Below are positions 47,820 to 58,312 of a stretch of 64,000 nucleotides of DNA, piece after piece. Within the stretch, counting starts at the first letter, position 1. Every line of letters begins with the position of its first letter. The notes under the pieces were generated by a model, which was not told where the DNA came from, did not search any database, and saw nothing but the letters and a program-made list of their open reading frames with translations. The stretch is from assembly GCA_963749155.1 (NCBI GenBank), contig CAVVLO010000005.1, positions 256,001-320,000 on the forward strand, read 5' to 3'. The position numbers and the translations under genes are program-made. Source of the stretch: an uncultured Armatimonadia bacterium (lineage in GTDB: Bacteria > Armatimonadota > Zipacnadia > CAVVLO01).

Positions 47820-50453
47820 ATGGAAATGAAGCTCTTCTGTATTGCCTTTATGTTGGTGGCCTCGCTGGCCGCCGCTGTCCCCATCGAGCAGACGCCCTAT
47901 GGCAAGGCTGTCTTCCGCATCGAGGCCCGGCCGGGTCCGCAGCAGATGAAAGACCCCGTCGAAAGGCAGCGGATCGAAGGCGCTCTGGCCGAAGCCGGCG
48001 TGGACGGCCGGTGGATCTCTATTGTAGATCCTGTCGGTTGTCCCTATCTTGACAACGATTATCTCCCTCCAGTAGCAGGTCAGGACCTGGCCGAGAACGA
48101 GGCTATAATGAAGGCCTGGGTCGCCGAGATGCACGCCAAAGGCCAGGCCGTGATGAGCTGGTATGCCCTCTCCATAGGCCAGTCCGCCAACCTCGCGCAT
48201 CCCGACTGGCGCCAGGTCTCGGTCGTGCCCTGGTATCGCGAGGCCGAAGCCTCTTTCTTCTGCTGCCATATGACTGGTTACGGCGAGGCGATGATCAACT
48301 ACTGCATCGATGCAATCAAGCGACTCGACCTCGATGGCATCTGGTTCGATGGCGCAGCCTGGACGCCAATCTGGAATCGCCCGCTGCCGATCACCTGCTA
48401 CTGTGAGACCTGTCAGGCGGCCTTCAAGGCCGACACTGGCCTTGACTTACCGACTGTCTACAGCTTCGAAGACACCACCTTCCGCACCTGGGTTGAGTGG
48501 CGCTATCAGAAATTTGGCGAATTTATCGGGACAGCTGCCCGGCGCATCCGGGAGGCTTGCCCTGAAGCCGCCGTCGTCATCAACCACTACCACCGGCCAG
48601 GTATCCCCTGGCACAGCGCCATCCCGGTTGACCATTATGACGCTGACATCATTACAGGCTCGGAGGCCTTTTCACCTGTCACTCTCGACCTTACCCAACG
48701 CCTGAATCGCGCCTATGGTCGTAGTCAGTCCGAAGTTTGGCGCGCTTTCGATATCGCCGCCACGCCCGAGCTTACCGCCGAGAACCTGATCCCGCACGCC
48801 CTTAACTCTTATGTGGCTGGGGGACGCCCGTCTTTCGGCGGAGACAGCAGCAATCCGATGATGGCCCAGACCGCCGCGCTGATGAGCCCTGTGTTGAAGG
48901 CTATCACGCCCTACATCGGCGCTCCTTCGCTGCCGCATGTCGCCCTGCACCTCTCCCAGCAGTCGGAGACCTTCGTCTTCGCCCGTGGGGGCGACATCCA
49001 GAATCCCTCTGACTTCTTCTGGAGCGCTCTTGGCAACTGGACCTGGGCCTTGCTGGAGGCCCATCTACCCCCCGATATTATTTTCGATGCCGATTTTACC
49101 CAGGCAAAACTTGCGAAGTATGACGTACTGCTGATGCCCCTCTCGCCGGCCCTTTCCGGCCAGCAAGCCCGCACCGCGCTCGATTTTGCGCGGCGAGGCG
49201 GAGTGCTGGTGCTGGGTATCGGCGCTGGCCAAAAGACTCCCCAGGGCGAGCCTGCAACTGCCAGGGTGCTGGAACACGCCCTTGGCTTTTCCTTCAACCG
49301 GCAACTCGACGCCGCGAACCTCCACATCGAAGCCACTCGCCTCGAACCGGTGGGGGAGGGCCAACCCTTTGCCGTCAATGGGGTCACCACGCCAGCGGAC
49401 TTCACGGCCTCCGAGTGGGAGCCCCTCTTCCTCACTGAAGAAGGTCGCCCGGGCATGGCCCAGCGGCCCTATGGTGAGGGGCAAGTGATTGTGGTTACTG
49501 CCGATCCCTCGCGAATGTTCGGCAGTTCTCCTGCATCCGGCGGTGACACCCAGCTCTTTGTCAGCGACGAGCAGGCTGCCAGTGGCAGCTACAGCCTCAA
49601 ATTCGTGGATGGCCCTATCGCCCCACAGACCTTCTATCCCGATCTTGAAAACAACCTGCCTGCTTTCAGCGCGCCCGAATCTGCAGGCGGCCTGCTGGAG
49701 TGTGATCTGCGGCTGGAAGAAGGCGCCAGAGTCACCTTCGAGGTGCGCTCGCACGAACAGCCTATCCTCGGCCCTTCGGTCGACCTGACCTCCGATGGGC
49801 TTGCGCATCTCTCGAACGGCGGTACAGTGCCCGTTCCCCTTAACGAATGGTTTCACTTCGCGCTTGCTTATGACTTTGCGGGCGCAGGCACGACCTCTAC
49901 TTTCAAAGTGATTATCACCCGCGAGGATGGCAGCGTCGCTGAAGCCACCGGCGCCTCACTGCAGCCCGATTACAACAAGACTGACTGGTTTGTCATCTTC
50001 GGCTCAGGTACCGCCCCGGGGAGCTGGTATTTGGATAACCTGAGTCTGGCGCGACGTTTGCCTGATGGCGCCTCGGAGCGCGTCCTTCTTCTCGACTTTG
50101 AAGAGGGTGAAAACAGCCTGCTCGAAACGGGCGTCCTCGTGACCGAACTCGCCGATGTCCTCAAGCGACTCGCACCGCCGCCCATCGCGCTGGAAGCGCC
50201 ACCCAGCGTCCACGCAGGTTGTTTCCAGCCCGATGAAAGCCGGGTCCTGGTGCATCTCTATAGCCTCGATAATGCCCTCGCCGACTGGCTGAAACCGACC
50301 GGTCACTCAGTGCGGCTCTCTTGCGCCTTCCAGCCCACGTCCGCGCGCCTGCCCCTCACCGGCGCGCAGCTCCAGGTGAAACGCTCCGGCGACCGCTGGC
50401 TAGTGGAGGTCCCGCCCATCGGCCTTTACCAGGTGGTAGAGCTGATACGATAA
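47820..50453 (+). CDS. Secreted putative glycoside hydrolase, paralogue B
   Basis: Colinear with 45174-47807 over its full length; LDGIWFDG and CYCETC motifs. Confidence 0.7.
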   Translation: MEMKLFCIAFMLVASLAAAVPIEQTPYGKAVFRIEARPGPQQMKDPVERQRIEGALAEAGVDGRWISIVDPVGCPYLDNDYLPPVAGQDLAENEAIMKAWVAEMHAKGQAVMSWYALSIGQSANLAHPDWRQVSVVPWYREAEASFFCCHMTGYGEAMINYCIDAIKRLDLDGIWFDGAAWTPIWNRPLPITCYCETCQAAFKADTGLDLPTVYSFEDTTFRTWVEWRYQKFGEFIGTAARRIREACPEAAVVINHYHRPGIPWHSAIPVDHYDADIITGSEAFSPVTLDLTQRLNRAYGRSQSEVWRAFDIAATPELTAENLIPHALNSYVAGGRPSFGGDSSNPMMAQTAALMSPVLKAITPYIGAPSLPHVALHLSQQSETFVFARGGDIQNPSDFFWSALGNWTWALLEAHLPPDIIFDADFTQAKLAKYDVLLMPLSPALSGQQARTALDFARRGGVLVLGIGAGQKTPQGEPATARVLEHALGFSFNRQLDAANLHIEATRLEPVGEGQPFAVNGVTTPADFTASEWEPLFLTEEGRPGMAQRPYGEGQVIVVTADPSRMFGSSPASGGDTQLFVSDEQAASGSYSLKFVDGPIAPQTFYPDLENNLPAFSAPESAGGLLECDLRLEEGARVTFEVRSHEQPILGPSVDLTSDGLAHLSNGGTVPVPLNEWFHFALAYDFAGAGTTSTFKVIITREDGSVAEATGASLQPDYNKTDWFVIFGSGTAPGSWYLDNLSLARRLPDGASERVLLLDFEEGENSLLETGVLVTELADVLKRLAPPPIALEAPPSVHAGCFQPDESRVLVHLYSLDNALADWLKPTGHSVRLSCAFQPTSARLPLTGAQLQVKRSGDRWLVEVPPIGLYQVVELIR

Positions 50454-50458
50454 AGTCA

Positions 50459-50772
50459 CGGGGGCTCCAGCCCCCGCCACCCACTCGCGCGAAGTCGCAA
50501 AAGGGTATCGCGGGGGCTCTGCCCCCGCCACCCACTCGCGCGAAGTCGCAAAAGGGTATCGCGGGGGCTCTGCCCCCGCCCCCACTCGCGCGAAGTCGCA
50601 GGATCGCGGGGCCCCCGCCCCCCTCGCTGCGCAGGGACGCGGGGGCCTCCCCAGACCCGCAGAAGAGCAGCCCTCCCCCGCCCCCCCCGCAGAGGGGAGG
50701 CGAGAGGGCTGTATTCGATGGGACGGAAGACTGTGCCTCAGCCGGAACATCAAGACACAACTTCGTGACCTT
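50459..50772 (+). repeat. Modular palindromic repeat, copy R2, containing a 51-bp tandem unit (about 2.6 copies)
   Basis: Unit GCCCCCGCCACCCACTCGCGCGAAGTCGCAAAAGGGTATCGCGGGGGCTCT at 50470 and 50521, partial at 50572; remainder matches R1. Confidence 0.88.
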
Positions 50773-50831
50773 ACCGGGCCTGTTCGTTGAAGGGTGGGTG
50801 GAACTTCTGGGGCTTCTGAACGTCTATGGAT

Positions 50832-50860
50832 TTGAGGAAGCTGTAATATTACTGTATTAT
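50832..50860 (+). promoter_or_regulatory. Sigma70-type promoter with a palindrome in the spacer
   Basis: TTGAGG-17-TATTAT; GTAATATTAC palindrome at 50843-50852. Confidence 0.45.
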
Positions 50861-50993
50861 GATAAAGCAAGCTAGTAAAGAGTACGACTGCACCGACCTG
50901 TAACTAGGGGCCAGCGCGGCCGCCGGGACGCCTCGCCCTTCCACACGTTGATCACCCATACCAAACCATTACCCCGGTAGGGAGGCACCGCTT

Positions 50994-52115
50994 ATGGAAA
51001 CCAGCAAACCAGTCTTTGCTGTGCTTGGCGCGGGTCATGGTGGCACCGCGATGGCGGCCGATCTCGCTCTCAGAGGTTTCGAAGTAAGGCTTTGGAACCG
51101 CTCTCTCGAGCGCCTGCAAGCCATCCAGCAGCGTGGAGGAGTCGACCTTGTAGTAGCTGCGAATTGCCCGCTCTCGGGCGGTGCGGCCCGCATCGACGTT
51201 GCTACTACCGATATCGAACAGGCTGTCTCGGGCGCCGACATAATAATGGTAGTCGTGCCAGCGCTTGGGCATGAGCTTGTTGCTCGTGCCTGTGCTCCCC
51301 ATCTAACTGACAGCCAGATGGTTGTCCTGAATCCGGGCAGAACCGGCGGCGCGCTCGAGTTTCGCCGCGTGCTTCTGGAAGAGGGCTGCAAAGCTAATCT
51401 CATCCTCGGCGAGGCCGAGACTTTTCTCTTCGCAAGCCGGGTCGTCAGCCCCGCTCAGAGCCGCATCTTTGCGGTCAAGAGTACCGTCGCTGTAGCCGCA
51501 CTGCCGGCTTATCGCACTGGCGAGCTGCTGAAGCGCCTGCGGTTGGCTTATCCGCAGTTCGTCGCCGCAGACAACGTGCTGCAGACCAGCCTATCCAATG
51601 TTGCCGTGATGTTCCACCCCGCCGTGATGATTGTAAACGCCGCGCGCATCGAGGACCAACACGGCAACTTCGATTACTACCATTCGGGCATCACGCCATC
51701 TGTCGCCCGTTATCTCGAGGCTGTTGACGCCGAGCGTCTTGCCGTTGCCCAGTCAGTGGGCGTCCGGGTCATCCCCGTCCGCAAGTGGCTGTATATGGCT
51801 TACGATGCCCCAGGCCGCGACCTGTTCGAAGCCATCCAGGCCAATACCGGCTACGCGGGTATCAAGGCCCCGCCCACCCTCGCATACCGGTATCTGATGG
51901 AAGACGCCCCCATGTGCCTGGTACCAATGATCTCAATTGGCGAGCAATATGGTTGCGACATGACGTTGATGCGCAGCATAACCCAGGTTGCGGGGGCCCT
52001 GCTTGATGTAGATTTCTTCGCGACAGGCCGCACTGTGGAACGCCTTGGCATCGATGGTATGGACGTACGCAGGTTGCGGCGAGTGGTGCTGGAGGGAGAG
52101 GATAATGGAGACTAA
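50994..52115 (+). CDS. NAD/NADP octopine/nopaline (opine) dehydrogenase family protein
   Basis: GAGHGG Rossmann motif, LNPGRTGGA, N..FHP, FDYYHSGITP and RYLMED.P..LVP motifs. Confidence 0.88.
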   Translation: METSKPVFAVLGAGHGGTAMAADLALRGFEVRLWNRSLERLQAIQQRGGVDLVVAANCPLSGGAARIDVATTDIEQAVSGADIIMVVVPALGHELVARACAPHLTDSQMVVLNPGRTGGALEFRRVLLEEGCKANLILGEAETFLFASRVVSPAQSRIFAVKSTVAVAALPAYRTGELLKRLRLAYPQFVAADNVLQTSLSNVAVMFHPAVMIVNAARIEDQHGNFDYYHSGITPSVARYLEAVDAERLAVAQSVGVRVIPVRKWLYMAYDAPGRDLFEAIQANTGYAGIKAPPTLAYRYLMEDAPMCLVPMISIGEQYGCDMTLMRSITQVAGALLDVDFFATGRTVERLGIDGMDVRRLRRVVLEGEDNGD

Positions 52116-53740
52116 GCGGATACTAGGAGCAAGCCTTGGCAACTGCGTGCATGTCGCTGGCGTGCTCAGTTTTCTCGAAACCGCCCGTCGCAACGGGTGG
52201 GACGCCGAATTCGCGGGTGCGGCACTGCCACCGGCCGATTTCGTGGCCAAAGCGGTAGAGTTGAAGCCCGACGTCCTCGCGGTCAGTTATCGTCTTTCAC
52301 CTGAGCCCTTGCGCGCGCTGCTTGCCGACCTGAAGCAACAACTCGATCGAGCAGGCCTCCCTGGAAGGCGTCTGGTCTTTGGCGGCACCCCCCAGGTCTC
52401 GGGTGTTGCGCGCGAGTCTGGTCTTTTTGAAGCTGTGTTTGATGGCACAGAGGGGCGCCTGGCTCCTGCCGCCTGGCTGCGCGGCGAGGCCATCGGTGGC
52501 GATGCTCAGCACCTGGGCGATACTTTACTCGAGCGCATCGAGACCAAGCGCCCCTTCCCGATACTGCGTCACCATTTCGGGCAACCAACCTTGCAGGCGA
52601 CGATTGACGGGGCCACCGAGATTGCCGAATCCGGCGTGTTGGATGTCTTCTCAATCGGTCCTGACCAGAATGCCCAGCAGCATTTTTTCCACCCGGACGA
52701 TATGGACCTGTCCCTTGATGGTGCTGGTGGTGTGCCACTACGCACGCCAGAGGATCTTAAGGCTCTTTTTGAGGCTACCAGGTGCGGTAACTACCCCCTG
52801 CTGCGCTGTTATGCGGGCACGCGCGACCTCATCAGGTGGGCAGAGGTCCATGTCGCGACCATCCATAATGCCTGGGGCGCGGTGCCCCTGTGCTGGTACA
52901 ATGTACTCGACGCCCGTAGCGAGCGTCCTCTGGAGGAGGCTATTACCGAGAACCAGCAGGCCATCGCCTGGTACGGCGCGCGCGGTATCCCCCTCGAGTG
53001 CAACGAGTCCCACCACTGGAGTTTACGCTCTGCTCACGACACCATCGCCGTTGTGATGGCTTTTCTGGCCGCTTACAACGCGCGCCAGCTAGGCGTCAGG
53101 CAGTATGTCGCCCAGTATATGTTCAACACCCCCGCTGGTACGAGCTTCAAGATGGACCTGGCGAAGATGCTGGCGAAAATCGAACTCATCGAGAGCCTCC
53201 ATTCCAGCAGTTTTACGACCATCCGGGAGACACGCGCAGGTTTGATGTTCTTCCTGCCCGGCCTCGACCAGGCCAAGGGCCAGCTTGCTGCCTCGACGGT
53301 CTTGCAGCTCCAGGTGAAGCCCTCGATTATGCATGTCGTTGGTTTCTCGGAAGCTGATCACGCTGTGCTGCCGCATGAGCTTGTCGAGAGCTGCCGCCTT
53401 GTACAAGGCGTACTCGAGGACTGCCTCGAAGGCGTGCCTGATATGACCCTCGATCCCGAGGTCCAGGCCCGCAAAGCCGAGCTTCTCTCCGAAGCCGCTC
53501 TGCTGCTTGCTGCGCTAAAGAGTCGCTCTTGTGGTTGCGGCGACTCGTGGACCTGTCCCCGCTGCATCACCAGCGCCATCAAGACCGGCCTTCTCGACGC
53601 GCCGCACTTGTGCGGTAATCCAGCCGCATCCGGTAAACTTGTCACCGCTGTCCTCGATGGCGCCGTCCGCGCTATCGACGAACATACCGGCCGAACCGCT
53701 GACCGAAGCTCAGCGATTGGCGACTTTGGGCGTATTGTAG
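52105..53740 (+). CDS. Cobalamin-binding-domain protein fused to a glutamate-mutase-E-like barrel, frameshift near 53690
   Basis: N-terminal CVHVAG (DxHxxG-like)...SYRL...GG B12 domain; the repaired end is GEPLTEAQRLATLGVL* at 53740. Confidence 0.75.
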
Positions 53741-53744
53741 GACG

Positions 53745-54113
53745 GGAAAGGGTATCGCGGGGGCTCTGCCCCCACGCCCCCGCTGGGGAGAGCCTCCCCA
53801 GACCCGCGAAATCAGCCGTGAAGCTCCCCGCTGCGGGGGAGCCCCACGACTGGGCCCGTTGGGCCAGGAACACTAGCCGCAGCCGGAGTATAGAGCCACA
53901 GCTTCGTGACCTTGTCGTGCCGGCAGGAGTTGAATCAGGAGTATTGCAGGATTTTTGCTCTTAACTCCGGCTCGAGATGGTATTTCCGGGGCCCTTGGGC
54001 CCCCAAAGAGAGAGCGAGGGCCTGAAATTCGGTCCTCGCTTTCTCTTTGAGTTCGGGGGTCTGGGGACACTGTCCCCAGCGGGGTGCAGGGGCGGAGTCC
54101 CTGCGGTCTTTCC
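53745..54113 (+). repeat. Modular palindromic repeat, copy R3 (direct repeat of R4 over about 330 bp)
   Basis: 53778-54110 matches 55782-56112 with roughly a dozen differences counted by eye. Confidence 0.92.
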
Positions 54114-54181
54114 TCTCCTCGCAAGGAATCAAGCAGCGAGGAGCGAACTGTAGAGGCATCCGATTGGGGGAGGCCTATCCG

Positions 54182-55753
54182 ATGTGGTACGAAGTTGATA
54201 TGACGCAGCGACTGGAGCTTGCGACGCAGTATGTCGCGGGGATGCTGGACGCAGATAAAGAGAGCGAGCCCTTCTTCCATATTACGAGGCGCGATGATGG
54301 GACTTGCTTTGCGGGCCACGCTCACGAGATAGGCATCCCGCACGTGACCGGACGCGCGCTGGACACGCTATTCATCACGGAAGAGACACTGGGACGACCT
54401 GCCCCCGAGCCTGCGACCACTGTCTATGCAGACTATCTCTTCGGTTGCCTCGACAACGAGGACAGCTTGCCCTCCTTCTATAATCTACCTCCAGCGGAGT
54501 TCAAGCGCGGAGTGGAGTTCCACAACGTGCGCGAGGCACTGGAAGGGCTTTACTGGCTGATAAAGCTGCGCGACAGCGATGAAGCCCGCAAGTATGCGCA
54601 TGGTATGCTCGCTACGCTCGACAAGCTGAGCCTGCCTGGCGGACGGTATGCCTGGGAGCGTATCGCAGAACTGGGCCGGCAGGGTGTCTGGGTTGGCATC
54701 GGCGAAGTGCAGACAGTGAGTTCTGGCCGGGTGGTAGGCCCGCTGATGAAATACTACCGGCTGACTGGCGAGAGCCTCGCACTGAGGCTGGCAGGCGGCT
54801 ATGCGAAATACGTGATGGACGTCTCTTTCGATGAGCACGGCCTGCTGACCGACCTGGCGGGCAACCACGTTCACTCGATAACCAGTTCGCTCTCGGGCAT
54901 CCTCGATTATGCGCTCACAGTTGGCGATGAGGCGATGGTCGAGGCCGTCCGGCGCGCTGCCGAAGTCGGACTGCGCGAATACTGGACGACCTACGGTTGG
55001 GTGAAGGAGCAAGCCTGGCTCGAGACCGACCAGGGCGAAGTGAATCAGATAGGCGATATGGTGCAGCTCTGGCTGGCGCTGGCTGCCCATCGCGACCCCA
55101 CTTACTACGAGCGCGCCGAGATCTGGCTGCGCGGGGCGCTATTGCCCAGTCAGGTGCTCGATTCGAGCTTCTGCGTGGAGAACGAGAGCCCCGCCGGCGA
55201 TCACGAATACAACCTGCTGGCGCGGATGATCGGTGGGTTCGGCTTCCCCACGCCCAATGCCCATCTGCAGAAGCCCTCCTCGCCCATAAATACTGTGGAT
55301 ATCACCCAGGGGGCGGTGCAGGGCTTGTGCGAAGCCATCAACCATACCATCACCGAGGACAGCCTGGGTGTGCGAGTCAATCTGCTCTTCTCCTGGGAGA
55401 ACGCCCTGGCGAAGGTCGAGAGCGCGTTGCCGCTGGAAGGGAAGCTCTCCATCACTGTGAAGCAACCACGCAACCTGCTGGTGCGCATACCCACCCATAT
55501 CGAATCAGGAAGCCTCTCAATAACCAAATCAGGTCAGCCGGTGAGCTTCGAACAGGTTGGGATTTATGCCCTCGTCGAAAACCACGAGCCGAACACGACC
55601 TTTGAGGTCACCTTCCAGCCCACCGTGCGCCAGGAACGAGAATTTGCTTATCACTTCATCTACTATGTGAGCTGGTTCGGCGAACAGGTTACCGGCATCG
55701 AGCCCGTAAAAGGCCTCTATCCTTTGTATGGCGACTGGCCAGGGCCTCGGTAG
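54182..55753 (+). CDS. GH127/GH146-like (alpha/alpha)6 protein
   Basis: HVTGRALD, HVHS and RVNLLFS...LP.EG...VRIP layout; GGGAGG RBS. Confidence 0.55.
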   Translation: MWYEVDMTQRLELATQYVAGMLDADKESEPFFHITRRDDGTCFAGHAHEIGIPHVTGRALDTLFITEETLGRPAPEPATTVYADYLFGCLDNEDSLPSFYNLPPAEFKRGVEFHNVREALEGLYWLIKLRDSDEARKYAHGMLATLDKLSLPGGRYAWERIAELGRQGVWVGIGEVQTVSSGRVVGPLMKYYRLTGESLALRLAGGYAKYVMDVSFDEHGLLTDLAGNHVHSITSSLSGILDYALTVGDEAMVEAVRRAAEVGLREYWTTYGWVKEQAWLETDQGEVNQIGDMVQLWLALAAHRDPTYYERAEIWLRGALLPSQVLDSSFCVENESPAGDHEYNLLARMIGGFGFPTPNAHLQKPSSPINTVDITQGAVQGLCEAINHTITEDSLGVRVNLLFSWENALAKVESALPLEGKLSITVKQPRNLLVRIPTHIESGSLSITKSGQPVSFEQVGIYALVENHEPNTTFEVTFQPTVRQEREFAYHFIYYVSWFGEQVTGIEPVKGLYPLYGDWPGPR

Positions 55754-55754
55754 C

Positions 55755-56114
55755 GGAAAAGCGCGGGGTTCCACCCCTGCACCCCGCTGGGGAGAGCCTC
55801 CCCAGACCCGCGAAATCAGCCGTGAAGCTCCCCGCTGGGGGGAGCCCCACGACTGGGCCCGTTGGGCCAGGAAGACTGTGCCGCAGCCGGAGTATAGAGG
55901 TACAGCCTCGTGACCTTGTCGTGCCGGCAGGAGTTGGATAGGAGTATTGCAGGATTTTTGCTCTTAACTCCGGCTCGAGATGGTATTTCCGGGGCCCTTG
56001 GGCCCCCAAAGAGAGAGCGAGGGCCTGAAATTCGGTCCTCGCTTTCTCTTTGAGTCCGGGGGTCTGGGGACACTGTCCCCAGCGGGGTGCAGGGGCGGAG
56101 CCCTGCGGTCTTCC
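55755..56114. mobile_element. MITE/REPIN-like non-autonomous element, copy R4, with about 55-bp imperfect terminal inverted repeats
   Basis: Left end GGAAAAGCGCGGGGTTCCACCCCTGCACCCCGCTGGGGAGAGCCTCCCCAGACCC versus reverse complement of the right end GGAAGACCGCAGGGCTCCGCCCCTGCACCCCGCTGGGGACAGTGTCCCCAGACCC. Confidence 0.6.
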
Positions 56115-58312
56115 TACTCCGCTCCCGTCAGCACCGCCAGGTCCAGGAACTGGCCGCCGGTGTCCTGCCAGCAGTGGGCGGCGAGAGTATTAGGTCCCTC
56201 TACAAGTGCGTCTTTCAAGGTTTCAGTGATATCGAAGGCCTGATAGCGGTCATTCCAGCGGTCAGCCTGCCAGATGAGCTGGCCATTGACATAGACTTCG
56301 GTATCGTTGTCATAGTGGATACCGAGCAAGGCGAGGTCGAAGTCACTGCCGTCCCAGTTGAAGTTGCGCCTGACCCAGAGGTCTTTGGTGGTCCAGGGGG
56401 TGTTGATGCGCTTCTCCCAACCCTCTTTGGCGCCGAAAGGAGCCTGGCCGGTTTGCCAGGTAGAATCGTCATAATCGGCTACTTGCCAGTTGCTGTTTGG
56501 GGTTTCCAAAGTGTAAAGCCACTCGGCGCCGCTCTCGTTGGCGCTGGGCGAGAGGACCTTCCAGGTGACTTTAGGCGCGTTGACCTCGGTGGGCGGGGTC
56601 TGCTCGAAGGCGGCTGGTTTGCTGAGCAGGGCGTGGACACGAGGCACATCGAACTTGGGCTGCCGGTCATAGGTATACATCCCATTACGTTCCTGCTCCA
56701 CGTCGGTAAGCTGAGTGTAACAGAAACCAAACATCAGCGCATTGTCGAGCAGGGCATCGGTCAAGCCTTCAAGGCGGGTATAAAACTCTTCCAGGCTCTT
56801 GGGCGCGTTGCCATAACCCCAACCGGCGGCGCCGGTGTCCCAGCCAATGCCGCCCCATTCGCTGACGAAGAAGGGCAGCAGGCCACTGGCTGCGCCATAG
56901 GGGGCGGGCGCAAGCATCCCAACTTCATAGTCCTCAAGCCAGCGCTTGCGGAAGCTCTCCGGATTTTGGTCATAGTCGTGCTGGTCCATAACTTCCGGAT
57001 CAGCCAGGCCGTGAGTCCAGCCGCTGGTGTCGAGGACAGGCCGGCTGGGATCGAGCTTGCGCGTCAAGTCTACGACGGCGTTCTGCAGCCTGATGGCGCT
57101 TGAGGGCGTCTCATTGAAAGGGCACCAGCCGACAAGTGCTGGATGGTTGCGGTCGCGCTGGACGAGTTCTGCCCACTCGCTCATCACGGGCTGGTCGATG
57201 GCGGGATTTTCATAATTAAGGCCCCAGTTGGGGAATTCGCCCCATACCATATATCCAAGTTTATCGGCCCAGTAGAGGAAACGCGGCTCGAAGACCTTCT
57301 GGTGCAGTCTGGCTCCATTGAAGCCAACTGCCATCGAGCGCTCGATATCGGCCTTCAGTTCGGCATCACTCGAGGCGGTCCAGATCCCATCGGGGTAGAA
57401 GCCCTGGTCCAGCACCAGCCGCTGGAAGACGGGCTCATCGTTCAGCAGGATGGCCGCGCCTTTGATGCTGATTTTACGCAGCCCGAAGTAGCTTGCTACC
57501 CTGTCTACAACTCTGTCGCCCTCCATCACGGCAAGCTCAAGGTCGTAGAGGAAGGGATCACTCGGCGACCAGAGGTGCTTCTCGGACAAGTCTACGACCA
57601 GATGGTTGTTGCGCCAGTCCAGCGCGATGGCTTCCCGCCCTGCCAGCTTGCCATCAGCCTTGGCAACCGCCAGCAACGTAAGGCCCGAACAGGGCCCTTC
57701 GACTTGCGCGTTCACGAGCAATCTGGAGTTGTCCACATCGGAGATTATCTGAAACCCTTTTATATAGGTGTCCCCAACGCCTTCGAGCCAGACGCTTTGC
57801 CAGAGGCCCGTCGTGCGCGTATACAGGCAACCGAAGCTCTCCAGCTCTGGGCATTGCTTGCCAAGCGCCTGCAGGCCGCTGCGGGTGTCGTCAAAGGCGT
57901 GGATTACGACCGTGTTTTGACCTTCCGCCAGGGCAGAGGTGACATCAAAAGCGAAAGCTGCGCTGCCACCGATATGCTCTCCGACCCGCCGCCCGTTCAC
58001 CCAGACTTCAGTCTTCCAGTCTGAGGCGCCGATATGCAGCAAGGTCCGCGGCGCAGTCCAGTCTGCGGGGCGCTCGAAGGTACGCCTGTACCAGACGTGG
58101 TTTACAAAGCCTTTGCGCCCAAGCCCTGATAGCTCGCTCTCGCGGCAGAAGGGCACGGTTATCTCGTCGGGATACACCGCGTCCGAAAGCCTCAGCCGAG
58201 GTTCATACTCATCACTTTCGGCGAACTGCCACTGGCCATTCAGGCACAGCCAGTCGACGCGCTCGAAATCGGGCCTTGGATGCTCGCTTCTGGGAAGGGC
58301 TGACTGGTTCAT
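56114..58312 (-). CDS. GH2 glycoside hydrolase (beta-galactosidase/glucuronidase-like) with C-terminal beta-sandwich
   Basis: HPRPDF.R..W..LNG.W, LDQGFYPDG, RNHP...W.PFNE, SEWGG and YTQLTDVEQE motifs. Confidence 0.9.
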   Translation of the reverse strand: MNQSALPRSEHPRPDFERVDWLCLNGQWQFAESDEYEPRLRLSDAVYPDEITVPFCRESELSGLGRKGFVNHVWYRRTFERPADWTAPRTLLHIGASDWKTEVWVNGRRVGEHIGGSAAFAFDVTSALAEGQNTVVIHAFDDTRSGLQALGKQCPELESFGCLYTRTTGLWQSVWLEGVGDTYIKGFQIISDVDNSRLLVNAQVEGPCSGLTLLAVAKADGKLAGREAIALDWRNNHLVVDLSEKHLWSPSDPFLYDLELAVMEGDRVVDRVASYFGLRKISIKGAAILLNDEPVFQRLVLDQGFYPDGIWTASSDAELKADIERSMAVGFNGARLHQKVFEPRFLYWADKLGYMVWGEFPNWGLNYENPAIDQPVMSEWAELVQRDRNHPALVGWCPFNETPSSAIRLQNAVVDLTRKLDPSRPVLDTSGWTHGLADPEVMDQHDYDQNPESFRKRWLEDYEVGMLAPAPYGAASGLLPFFVSEWGGIGWDTGAAGWGYGNAPKSLEEFYTRLEGLTDALLDNALMFGFCYTQLTDVEQERNGMYTYDRQPKFDVPRVHALLSKPAAFEQTPPTEVNAPKVTWKVLSPSANESGAEWLYTLETPNSNWQVADYDDSTWQTGQAPFGAKEGWEKRINTPWTTKDLWVRRNFNWDGSDFDLALLGIHYDNDTEVYVNGQLIWQADRWNDRYQAFDITETLKDALVEGPNTLAAHCWQDTGGQFLDLAVLTGAE

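Follow-up and report, generated by a model that had tools for sequence, protein, structure and literature searches.

A conserved pairing of an opine dehydrogenase gene with the gene of a single-chain glutamate-mutase-like B12 protein: a candidate undescribed pathway in an uncultured Armatimonadia bacterium

What might a B12 protein that resembles glutamate mutase be doing when its gene is attached to that of an opine dehydrogenase? The question is raised by two overlapping genes at positions 50994 to 53740 of a 64,000-nucleotide (nt) stretch of DNA from an uncultured Armatimonadia bacterium (assembly GCA_963749155.1, contig CAVVLO010000005.1, positions 256,001 to 320,000 of the forward strand); this whole stretch is called the window here, and all coordinates refer to it unless otherwise stated. 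An earlier note on the window had read the two genes as an opine dehydrogenase beside a glutamate-mutase-like B12 protein, and both the predicted fold of the second protein and the conservation of the pair across genomes (below) support that description. Our overall reading, to which we give a probability of roughly 0.6, is that the two genes are a coupled pair whose products rearrange an opine-type amino acid, in a B12-dependent reaction not yet described, during the biosynthesis of a small molecule. The B12 protein family is large, it is present in many bacterial phyla and in Asgard archaea, and it is tied to an opine dehydrogenase, which is the partner of no known B12 enzyme; to our knowledge only a handful of adenosylcobalamin (AdoCbl) mutase reactions have been described.

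The two genes and their pairing across genomes

The features of the pair that are needed below are as follows (aa, amino acids):

50994-52115, + strand: gene 1, an open reading frame (ORF) of 373 aa, opine dehydrogenase family, CENDH-like
52091-52095, + strand: Shine-Dalgarno-like GGAGG, within the end of gene 1 and 9 nt before the gene 2 ATG
52105-53740, + strand: gene 2, 544 aa without the additional base at 53693; a B12-binding domain fused to a predicted GlmE-like barrel
52105-52488, + strand: B12-binding Rossmann domain of gene 2, residues 1 to ~128 (PF02310, E 1.9e-8)
52510-53685, + strand: predicted GlmE-like triose-phosphate isomerase (TIM) barrel with a C-terminal helical and beta-hairpin part, residues ~136-527
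53693, + strand: extra G, which shifts the frame of gene 2 17 codons before its true stop

That the two genes overlap, as the earlier note had claimed, is clear: the overlap between the ATG of gene 2 at 52105 and the TAA of gene 1 (52113-52115) is 11 nt, and this ATG is the start common to the homologues of gene 2 (METKRILGASLGNCVHVAG). The overlap and the GGAGG just upstream of it suggest that translation of the two genes is coupled.

Gene 1 matches the Pfam family Octopine_DH (PF02317) with an E-value of 2.8e-41 (141.5 bits against a cut-off of 30), and its residues 6-364 align end to end with the Arthrobacter enzyme CENDH, N-(1-D-carboxylethyl)-L-norvaline dehydrogenase (PDB 1bg6; E 1.3e-79), so the opine dehydrogenase of the earlier reading was correctly named. 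The glycines of the GxGxxG NAD(P) fold (G12, G14 and G17) are invariant in the 37 partner proteins from other genomes, and so are H208, R299 and D304, which align with CENDH H202, R292 and D297, presumably the catalytic residues. By these sequence comparisons gene 1 belongs genuinely to the opine dehydrogenases. Enzymes of this family couple an amino group to a 2-oxo acid, which yields an N-(1-carboxyalkyl) amino acid, or split compounds of that type, and the reaction is reversible. The closest known systems for gene 1 are CENDH (1BG6), with which it shares the full length of the alignment and the His, Arg and Asp positions, and octopine dehydrogenase (3C7A); it differs from both in its partner, and our search of the literature found no characterised opine dehydrogenase that works with a B12 enzyme. 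A prediction of a complex between the gene 1 and gene 2 proteins, made from alignments, scored 0.00 and gave no verdict either way.

Is the pairing kept in other genomes? In a scan of one genome per species 151 relatives of gene 2 were confirmed and the best 80 loci were kept; all neighbour counts given here are on those 80, which come from Armatimonadota, Bacteroidota, Planctomycetota, many Clostridia, Actinomycetota, Cloacimonadota, Poribacteria and Asgard archaea. Of these loci 73 have a gene 1 homologue on the same strand: directly upstream of gene 2 at 64 (gaps estimated at -4 to 96 nt) and downstream at nine, where it lies within 68-181 nt in seven cases and is separated by an AsnB or ATP-grasp gene in two. 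At the other seven loci the contig breaks off within 3-256 nt of gene 2 on one side, and one flank is missing. The conservation of the dehydrogenase-B12 gene pairing, on which the earlier reading had been made to depend, is near universal, and no other neighbour is as widely conserved at these loci. Next in frequency, and restricted to certain lineages, are an AsnB-like gene (15/80) and an ATP-grasp gene of the D-Ala-D-Ala-ligase type (14/80), followed by an M20 peptidase (6/80), MscS-type channels (5/80), a methyltransferase (3/80) and a GNAT gene (2/80); eight of the 13 AsnB-like neighbours with a readable start are without the N-terminal nucleophile Cys. Neither a methylaspartase nor a separate GlmL neighbour was seen among the loci. 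The cultured carriers include Thermoanaerobacterium saccharolyticum (locus L075), Thermoanaerobacter (L060) and Caldanaerobacter subterraneus (L046), the last of which we take to be one species with Thermoanaerobacter tengcongensis.

The bacterium of the window also has an AsnB homologue, its only AsnB-like match, which is unlinked to the pair (contig C3 of genome G000, G000:C3:619205-620656; locus L097, 7206-8663) and lies among glycoside hydrolase genes. It starts MGAIAG, is likewise without the Cys, and shares 53% identity with the AsnB-like gene of a Planctomycetota genome, where that gene comes after the pair.

A family of this description has been predicted before. Zhang, Rodionov, Gelfand and Gladyshev (2009, BMC Genomics 10:78, PMC2667541) proposed a novel family of B12-dependent proteins, with no function assigned to it in their description, that has a distant N-terminal B12-binding domain, is "always adjacent" to an octopine/nopaline dehydrogenase (pfam02317), has Ddl and AsnB nearby in several organisms, and was found in 11 bacteria belonging to four phyla; supplement file 1 gives Thermoanaerobacter tengcongensis a "+" for it (PMC2667541). 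Compared by description and organism table, this is very likely the gene 2 family, since the N-terminal B12 domain, the neighbouring dehydrogenase (73/80) and the nearby ATP-grasp (14/80) and AsnB-like (15/80) genes all recur here. It differs in that the 2009 description of the family (PMC2667541) makes no assignment of a barrel to glutamate mutase E, and in that the family as found here has thousands of sequences, including some from Asgard archaea. Searches of the full-text literature for opine dehydrogenase in combination with B12, adenosylcobalamin, mutase or methylaspartate brought up no pathway that has been characterised. The statement of the earlier note that no characterised pathway of this kind was known thus stands as far as a pathway is concerned, but the family and the pairing had both been predicted in 2009 (PMC2667541). 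The observation is therefore not new, and the B12 enzyme system is uncharacterised and probably of a new kind; that a prediction made 17 years ago has been followed by no characterisation that we could find in the literature is part of its interest.

Domains, predicted fold and active site of gene 2

The N-terminal domain of gene 2 carries the motif CVHVAG at residues 14-19 (52144-52161). In an alignment of 49 family members C14, H16, G19, S61 and G94 are each at least 90% conserved, and R63 is invariant. Against the GlmS fingerprint DxHxxG...SxL...GG, gene 2 keeps the ligand His (His16), the Ser (Ser61) and GG, and replaces the Asp with Cys14 and the Leu with Arg63. The conservation of Cys14 across the 49 members means that Cys in place of Asp, which the earlier note had pointed out in this protein, is a trait of the family and not a local mutation; the other motifs listed in that note are also all present in the gene 2 translation.

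A confident AlphaFold2 model of gene 2 was built from the 49-sequence alignment (mean predicted local distance difference test score, pLDDT, 92.7; predicted template modelling score, pTM, 0.84). Its top Foldseek matches in the PDB are glutamate mutase E chains (6h9e_B, E 1.7e-16; 1cb7_B, E 3.2e-16), followed by ornithine and lysine aminomutases and methylmalonyl-CoA mutases, and the N-terminal domain of the model matches GlmS (1i9c_A, TMt 0.74). VIA-align superimposes residues 136-525 of the model on residues 43-432 of 1cb7_B with Z 35.1 and a root-mean-square deviation of 2.8 Å over 367 residues, at a sequence identity between the gene 2 barrel and GlmE of ~16%; lysine aminomutase (LAM) gives Z ~31.5, ornithine aminomutase (OAM) ~29.5 and methylmalonyl-CoA mutase ~24, and unrelated barrels score much lower. 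In the model, then, a mutase-type substrate barrel is attached to a B12-binding Rossmann domain that contains a ligand His. Comparison of a model with glutamate mutase had been proposed earlier as a check, and it gave GlmE as the best match, with GlmS for the N-terminal domain; a non-mutase fold, which had been named as grounds for giving up the idea, was looked for, and the best matches are AdoCbl enzymes, GlmE first at Z 35.1. The PLP (pyridoxal phosphate)/AdoCbl aminomutases LAM and OAM are the second-best structural matches (Z 29-32) and are likewise AdoCbl enzymes acting on amino acids. These two enzymes depend on PLP, which a Lys in their Rossmann domain holds, and there is no Lys among the invariant or at least 90% conserved columns at residues 1-128 of gene 2 (49 members).

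Sequence families cover less of the protein. A Pfam scan of gene 2 found the N-terminal B12-binding domain only, NCBIfam has no family for it, and the annotation of its relatives is generic, for example "cobalamin B12-binding domain-containing protein", as are the names in the ESM Atlas. Among the 8000 candidates examined 6668 proteins belong to the family at E<=0.001, an exhaustive search gave 620 cluster representatives at the same threshold, and the best 120 relatives are all 531-577 aa long. Twelve of the 49 aligned members match PF06368 (Met_asp_mut_E) at E<=1, two of them just above the cut-off (27.5 versus 26.6 bits).

Does the barrel also have the active site of glutamate mutase? A profile of nine canonical GlmE sequences from Clostridia genomes was aligned to the family profile by hhalign, with a probability of 72-78% over 394-410 columns and with the key positions stable over three runs. 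In these alignments G68 of GlmE falls on G159 of gene 2 (49/49 members), N123-G124-x-P126 on G208-G209-x-P211, G151-T152-x-D154 on G238-T239-x-D241, and the Glu of the GlmE motif KTPxEA, which we take to be a ribose ligand, on E416 (48/49). Backbone contacts from G68 and N123 hold the adenosyl group in GlmE, and the substrate glutamate is bound by an "arginine claw" (R66, R100 and R149) and by E171, which contacts the substrate amine (as described in PMC10947579). The claw positions correspond in the gene 2 family to H157 (48/49), Q191 (47/49) and Y236 (49/49), respectively, and E171 falls in a gap or on G258 and has no acidic counterpart. Because the arginine claw is replaced family-wide, "glutamate-mutase-like" is the right description of gene 2 and "glutamate mutase" the wrong one. 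As judged from the aligned residues, the cofactor side of the barrel appears to be mutase-like and the substrate side to have been rebuilt.

The glutamate mutase of Clostridium cochlearium (1CB7, 1I9C, 6H9E) therefore shares with gene 2 the ligand His, Ser and GG of the B12 domain, the superimposable barrel and the barrel motifs (G68 as G159, NGxP as GGxP, GTxD as GTxD and the Glu of KTPxEA as E416). It differs in being made of two chains, S and E, whereas gene 2 is a single chain; in having the Asp of DxHxxG, the arginine claw and E171 where gene 2 has Cys, H157/Q191/Y236 and no counterpart; and in its partners, which are GlmL and methylaspartase and not an opine dehydrogenase. One Clostridiaceae genome (G001; loci L015 and L081) has a canonical GlmE (E 2.5e-231) as well as a dehydrogenase/B12 pair, which is consistent with a different role for the pair. 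A canonical GlmE was searched for in the window's own genome and was not found.

The end of gene 2 required a correction. In the window as written its frame runs from 52105 to 53964 (619 aa) and enters the downstream repeat, and the homologous tail, ...PLTEAQRLATLGVL*, is found in the next frame, where it ends with the TAG at 53738-53740. The closest relative, P0001 (95% identical, 544 aa), ends ...PLTEAQRLATLGVL, and the relatives in general are about 544 aa long. A contig from the public metagenome run X1 is identical to the window over 53400-53775 save for one base that is absent at 53693, and a contig from metagenome run X3, which belongs to a different study from X1, is likewise without that base; the X3 contig is an independent witness, which matters because X1 may be the sample from which the window was assembled. 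The two contigs without base 53693 show that the window has a 1-nt insertion there, for which an error of assembly or strain variation is the likeliest source, and a probable 1-nt assembly error is thereby flagged. The end of gene 2 at 53740 that the earlier note gave is thus not present in the window as it is written and is obtained only once the G at 53693 is removed.

Several side observations concern the gene 2 family. Some distant relatives (among P0155, P0158, P0164, P0137 and P0139) are fused to MutL (PF13941), a protein that is encoded within glutamate mutase operons; P0137 has a fused ATP-grasp domain and P0139 a weak, below-cut-off match to Peptidase_M15. A CxC...CxxC motif (SCGCGDSWTCPRC) lies at 53530-53571 (residues ~476-489); it is found in the window protein, P0001, P0003 and P0005, is absent from P0026, P0061, P0113 and P0047, and from this distribution may be a lineage-specific metal site. 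A paralogous family of ~630 aa is 36% identical to gene 2 over the barrel. At locus L101 (G260:C4, 3215-9505) such a paralogue, with no B12 domain detectable by Pfam, stands third in a row after AsnB and Octopine_DH genes and is followed by a cyclase gene and a gene of the PEP-mutase/isocitrate-lyase family.

Proposed role and alternatives

How might the two proteins work together? We propose that genes 1 and 2 would be expressed as one translationally coupled unit. The gene 1 protein would act with NAD(P)H and would either make the opine that is the substrate of the gene 2 protein or condense the amino acid that the latter produces. Gene 2 would bind AdoCbl in the His-on form and would perform a radical 1,2-rearrangement; its substrate would be of the amino-acid type but not free glutamate, most plausibly the opine from gene 1 or an amino acid that gene 1 then condenses. 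Where present, the AsnB-like protein (often without the glutaminase Cys) or the ATP-grasp enzyme would finish the small metabolite by forming an amide. The amide-forming neighbours, together with the unlinked Cys-less AsnB homologue in the window's own genome, point to the biosynthesis of a small modified amino acid.

By analogy the product could be an osmoprotective solute. The osmolyte N-acetylglutaminylglutamine amide (NAGGN) is made by AsnO and an acetyltransferase/ligase (PMC8070244), and AsnB-like amidating enzymes of this type recur beside the pair, as MscS channels occasionally do. This makes an osmoprotectant a reasonable guess and nothing firmer, and the likeness is one of analogy only: the asnO-ngg pathway, unlike the pair, is without a B12 enzyme and an opine dehydrogenase.

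A more specific version, which we put forward tentatively and regard as doubtful, is that the opine itself is the substrate of the mutase. Gene 1 would join an amino acid to 2-oxoglutarate or a comparable oxo acid to give an N-(dicarboxyalkyl) amino acid, one arm of which resembles an N-substituted glutamate; gene 2 would perform a carbon-skeleton shift of the glutamate mutase type on this secondary amine, and the loss of the claw and of the amine-binding Glu171 would reflect the additional N-substituent. If this were so, AdoCbl chemistry would gain a new reaction class, the radical rearrangement of opines, and the branched opine-type products of that reaction, further amidated by Cys-less AsnB or ATP-grasp enzymes, would be solutes of anaerobic bacteria and Asgard archaea.

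A number of observations weigh against a biosynthetic AdoCbl rearrangement. The window copy of gene 2 is frameshifted as written. The residue mapping depends on an alignment of moderate probability (72-78%), which dropped to 10.9% when two wrong ORFs (L089 and L092) were in the GlmE set; the window gene 2 protein has no match to PF06368 even at E<=1; and a profile search of the PDB sequences with the family alignment returned the B12 domain only and no GlmE. Cys for the Asp of DxHxxG and Arg for the Leu of SxL are present throughout the family, and we know of no characterised B12 enzyme with these two replacements. Among the neighbours, the M20 peptidases (6/80) and the DcuC carrier and IclR regulators at some Clostridia loci fit catabolism, MscS adjacency is rare, and in the window no AsnB or ATP-grasp gene adjoins the pair.

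The supply of cofactor is a further such point. In the window's own genome (4.17 Mb in seven contigs, 100% complete by markers) no adenosyltransferase of the PduO/EutT type (PF01923) or the CobA type (PF02572) was found, and this genome is one of only four among 121 sampled genomes of the phylum that have none. This is a real point against the use of AdoCbl in this organism, unless the coenzyme is imported. A full-length gene 2 orthologue is present in 24 of the 121 genomes and an adenosyltransferase in 22 of these 24 carriers (the second carrier without one is G225), as well as in 5/5 Clostridia carriers; this co-occurrence does not discriminate, because 117 of the 121 genomes have an adenosyltransferase. 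The window's own genome does encode other corrinoid proteins, namely a B12-radical SAM enzyme and a corrinoid protein that comes with a RACo activase. Its strong MutL homologue was considered as a partner and dropped, as its neighbours are a glycosyltransferase gene and an RnfC_N-like gene and no mutase adjoins it (loci L098 and L099 for these observations).

The main rival to our reading is a catabolic module, in which an opine or unusual amino acid is imported, is cleaved oxidatively by the dehydrogenase and has its skeleton rearranged by the B12 enzyme for fermentation; its models are the glutamate, lysine and ornithine fermentations. All characterised relatives by fold are known from the breakdown of amino acids or acyl-CoA, the carriers are mainly anaerobes (Thermoanaerobacter, Clostridia, Asgard archaea and others), the peptidase, carrier and regulator neighbours just mentioned would suit such a role, and the reversibility of opine dehydrogenases would allow it. 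We nevertheless consider it rather unlikely: the commonest extra neighbours (15/80 and 14/80) are ATP-consuming amide-forming enzymes, which are rarely met in catabolic pathways; the pair has no conserved lyase, CoA-transferase or further downstream fermentation gene with it; and in the window it stands alone among glycoside hydrolases. Could gene 2 instead be an ordinary fused glutamate mutase, which makes (2S,3S)-3-methylaspartate for use by the dehydrogenase? GlmE and GlmS are indeed the best structural matches and the motifs are collinear, and an S-E chain fusion made by engineering is reported to be active, but all three claw positions differ family-wide, E171 has no acidic counterpart, the window protein does not match PF06368, a canonical GlmE accompanies the pair in genome G001, and neither methylaspartase nor a separate GlmL was seen as a neighbour, all of which makes this very improbable.

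Two further alternatives bear on whether gene 2 is an AdoCbl enzyme and whether it is active in this genome. The protein might not be a radical AdoCbl enzyme at all but a methylcobalamin carrier or a sensor or scaffold, or it might have lost the use of the cofactor. The Cys and Arg replacements in the B12 domain would agree with this, as would the failure to find an adenosyltransferase in the window's own genome and in carrier G225 and the fact that, for the N-terminal domain, corrinoid methyltransferase proteins (4jgi, 7xcn) come first in the profile search of the PDB sequences. On the other side, the best matches of the barrel are all AdoCbl isomerases, with Z from 35 down to 20 before other folds appear, the positions of the adenosyl pocket are conserved, fusions to MutL occur among relatives, and 22/24 carriers in the phylum have an adenosyltransferase (with the 117/121 background that deprives this count of discriminating power); we hold this alternative to be decidedly unlikely. 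It is also quite improbable that the frameshift is real and that gene 2 is decaying, with the module inactive in this genome. The extra G does exchange the last 17 residues for 92 residues derived from the repeat, and no recognisable adenosyltransferase is present in the genome, but the X1 contig differs from the window only by that base over 53400-53775, the X3 contig is also without it, the frame is otherwise unbroken, with 95% identity to P0001, and gene 1 is intact. The system offers a predicted fold, a conserved cofactor site, a remodelled substrate site, recurrent amide-forming partners and cultured carriers, which together make the question of its reaction directly testable.

Flanking sequences

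The elements on either side of the pair are:

50461-50612: upstream repeat R2, a 51-nt unit present three times in tandem, with more G+C-rich repeats to ~50709
50832-50860, + strand: sigma-70-like promoter match, TTGAGG, 17 nt, TATTAT (9/12 positions), 134 nt 5' of gene 1
53757-54100: downstream repeat R3, the left copy of a 344-nt direct repeat whose right copy is at 55761-56103

The repeats that the earlier note described as bounding the pair are thus present on both sides. Its claim that the pair has its own promoter fared less well: there is one sigma-70-like match, but shuffled versions of the same region yield 0.8 on average, so that the match is weak evidence for a promoter. A search of 50300-56300 for riboswitches and other RNA families returned sub-threshold chance matches only. 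Within the window the pair is surrounded by glycoside hydrolases and has no other partner gene, and the R2 repeats come after the upstream glycoside-hydrolase-like gene and ahead of the promoter-like site. The two copies of the 344-nt repeat are 97% alike, and there are no further full copies in the 4.17-Mb genome; a miniature inverted-repeat transposable element (MITE) was ruled out for this repeat on the grounds that only two full copies exist genome-wide. Each copy contains internal inverted repeats, and the two bracket an ORF at 54047-55753 (568 aa) that has no Pfam or NCBIfam match. In a contig of metagenome run X3 there is a variant junction within the left copy.

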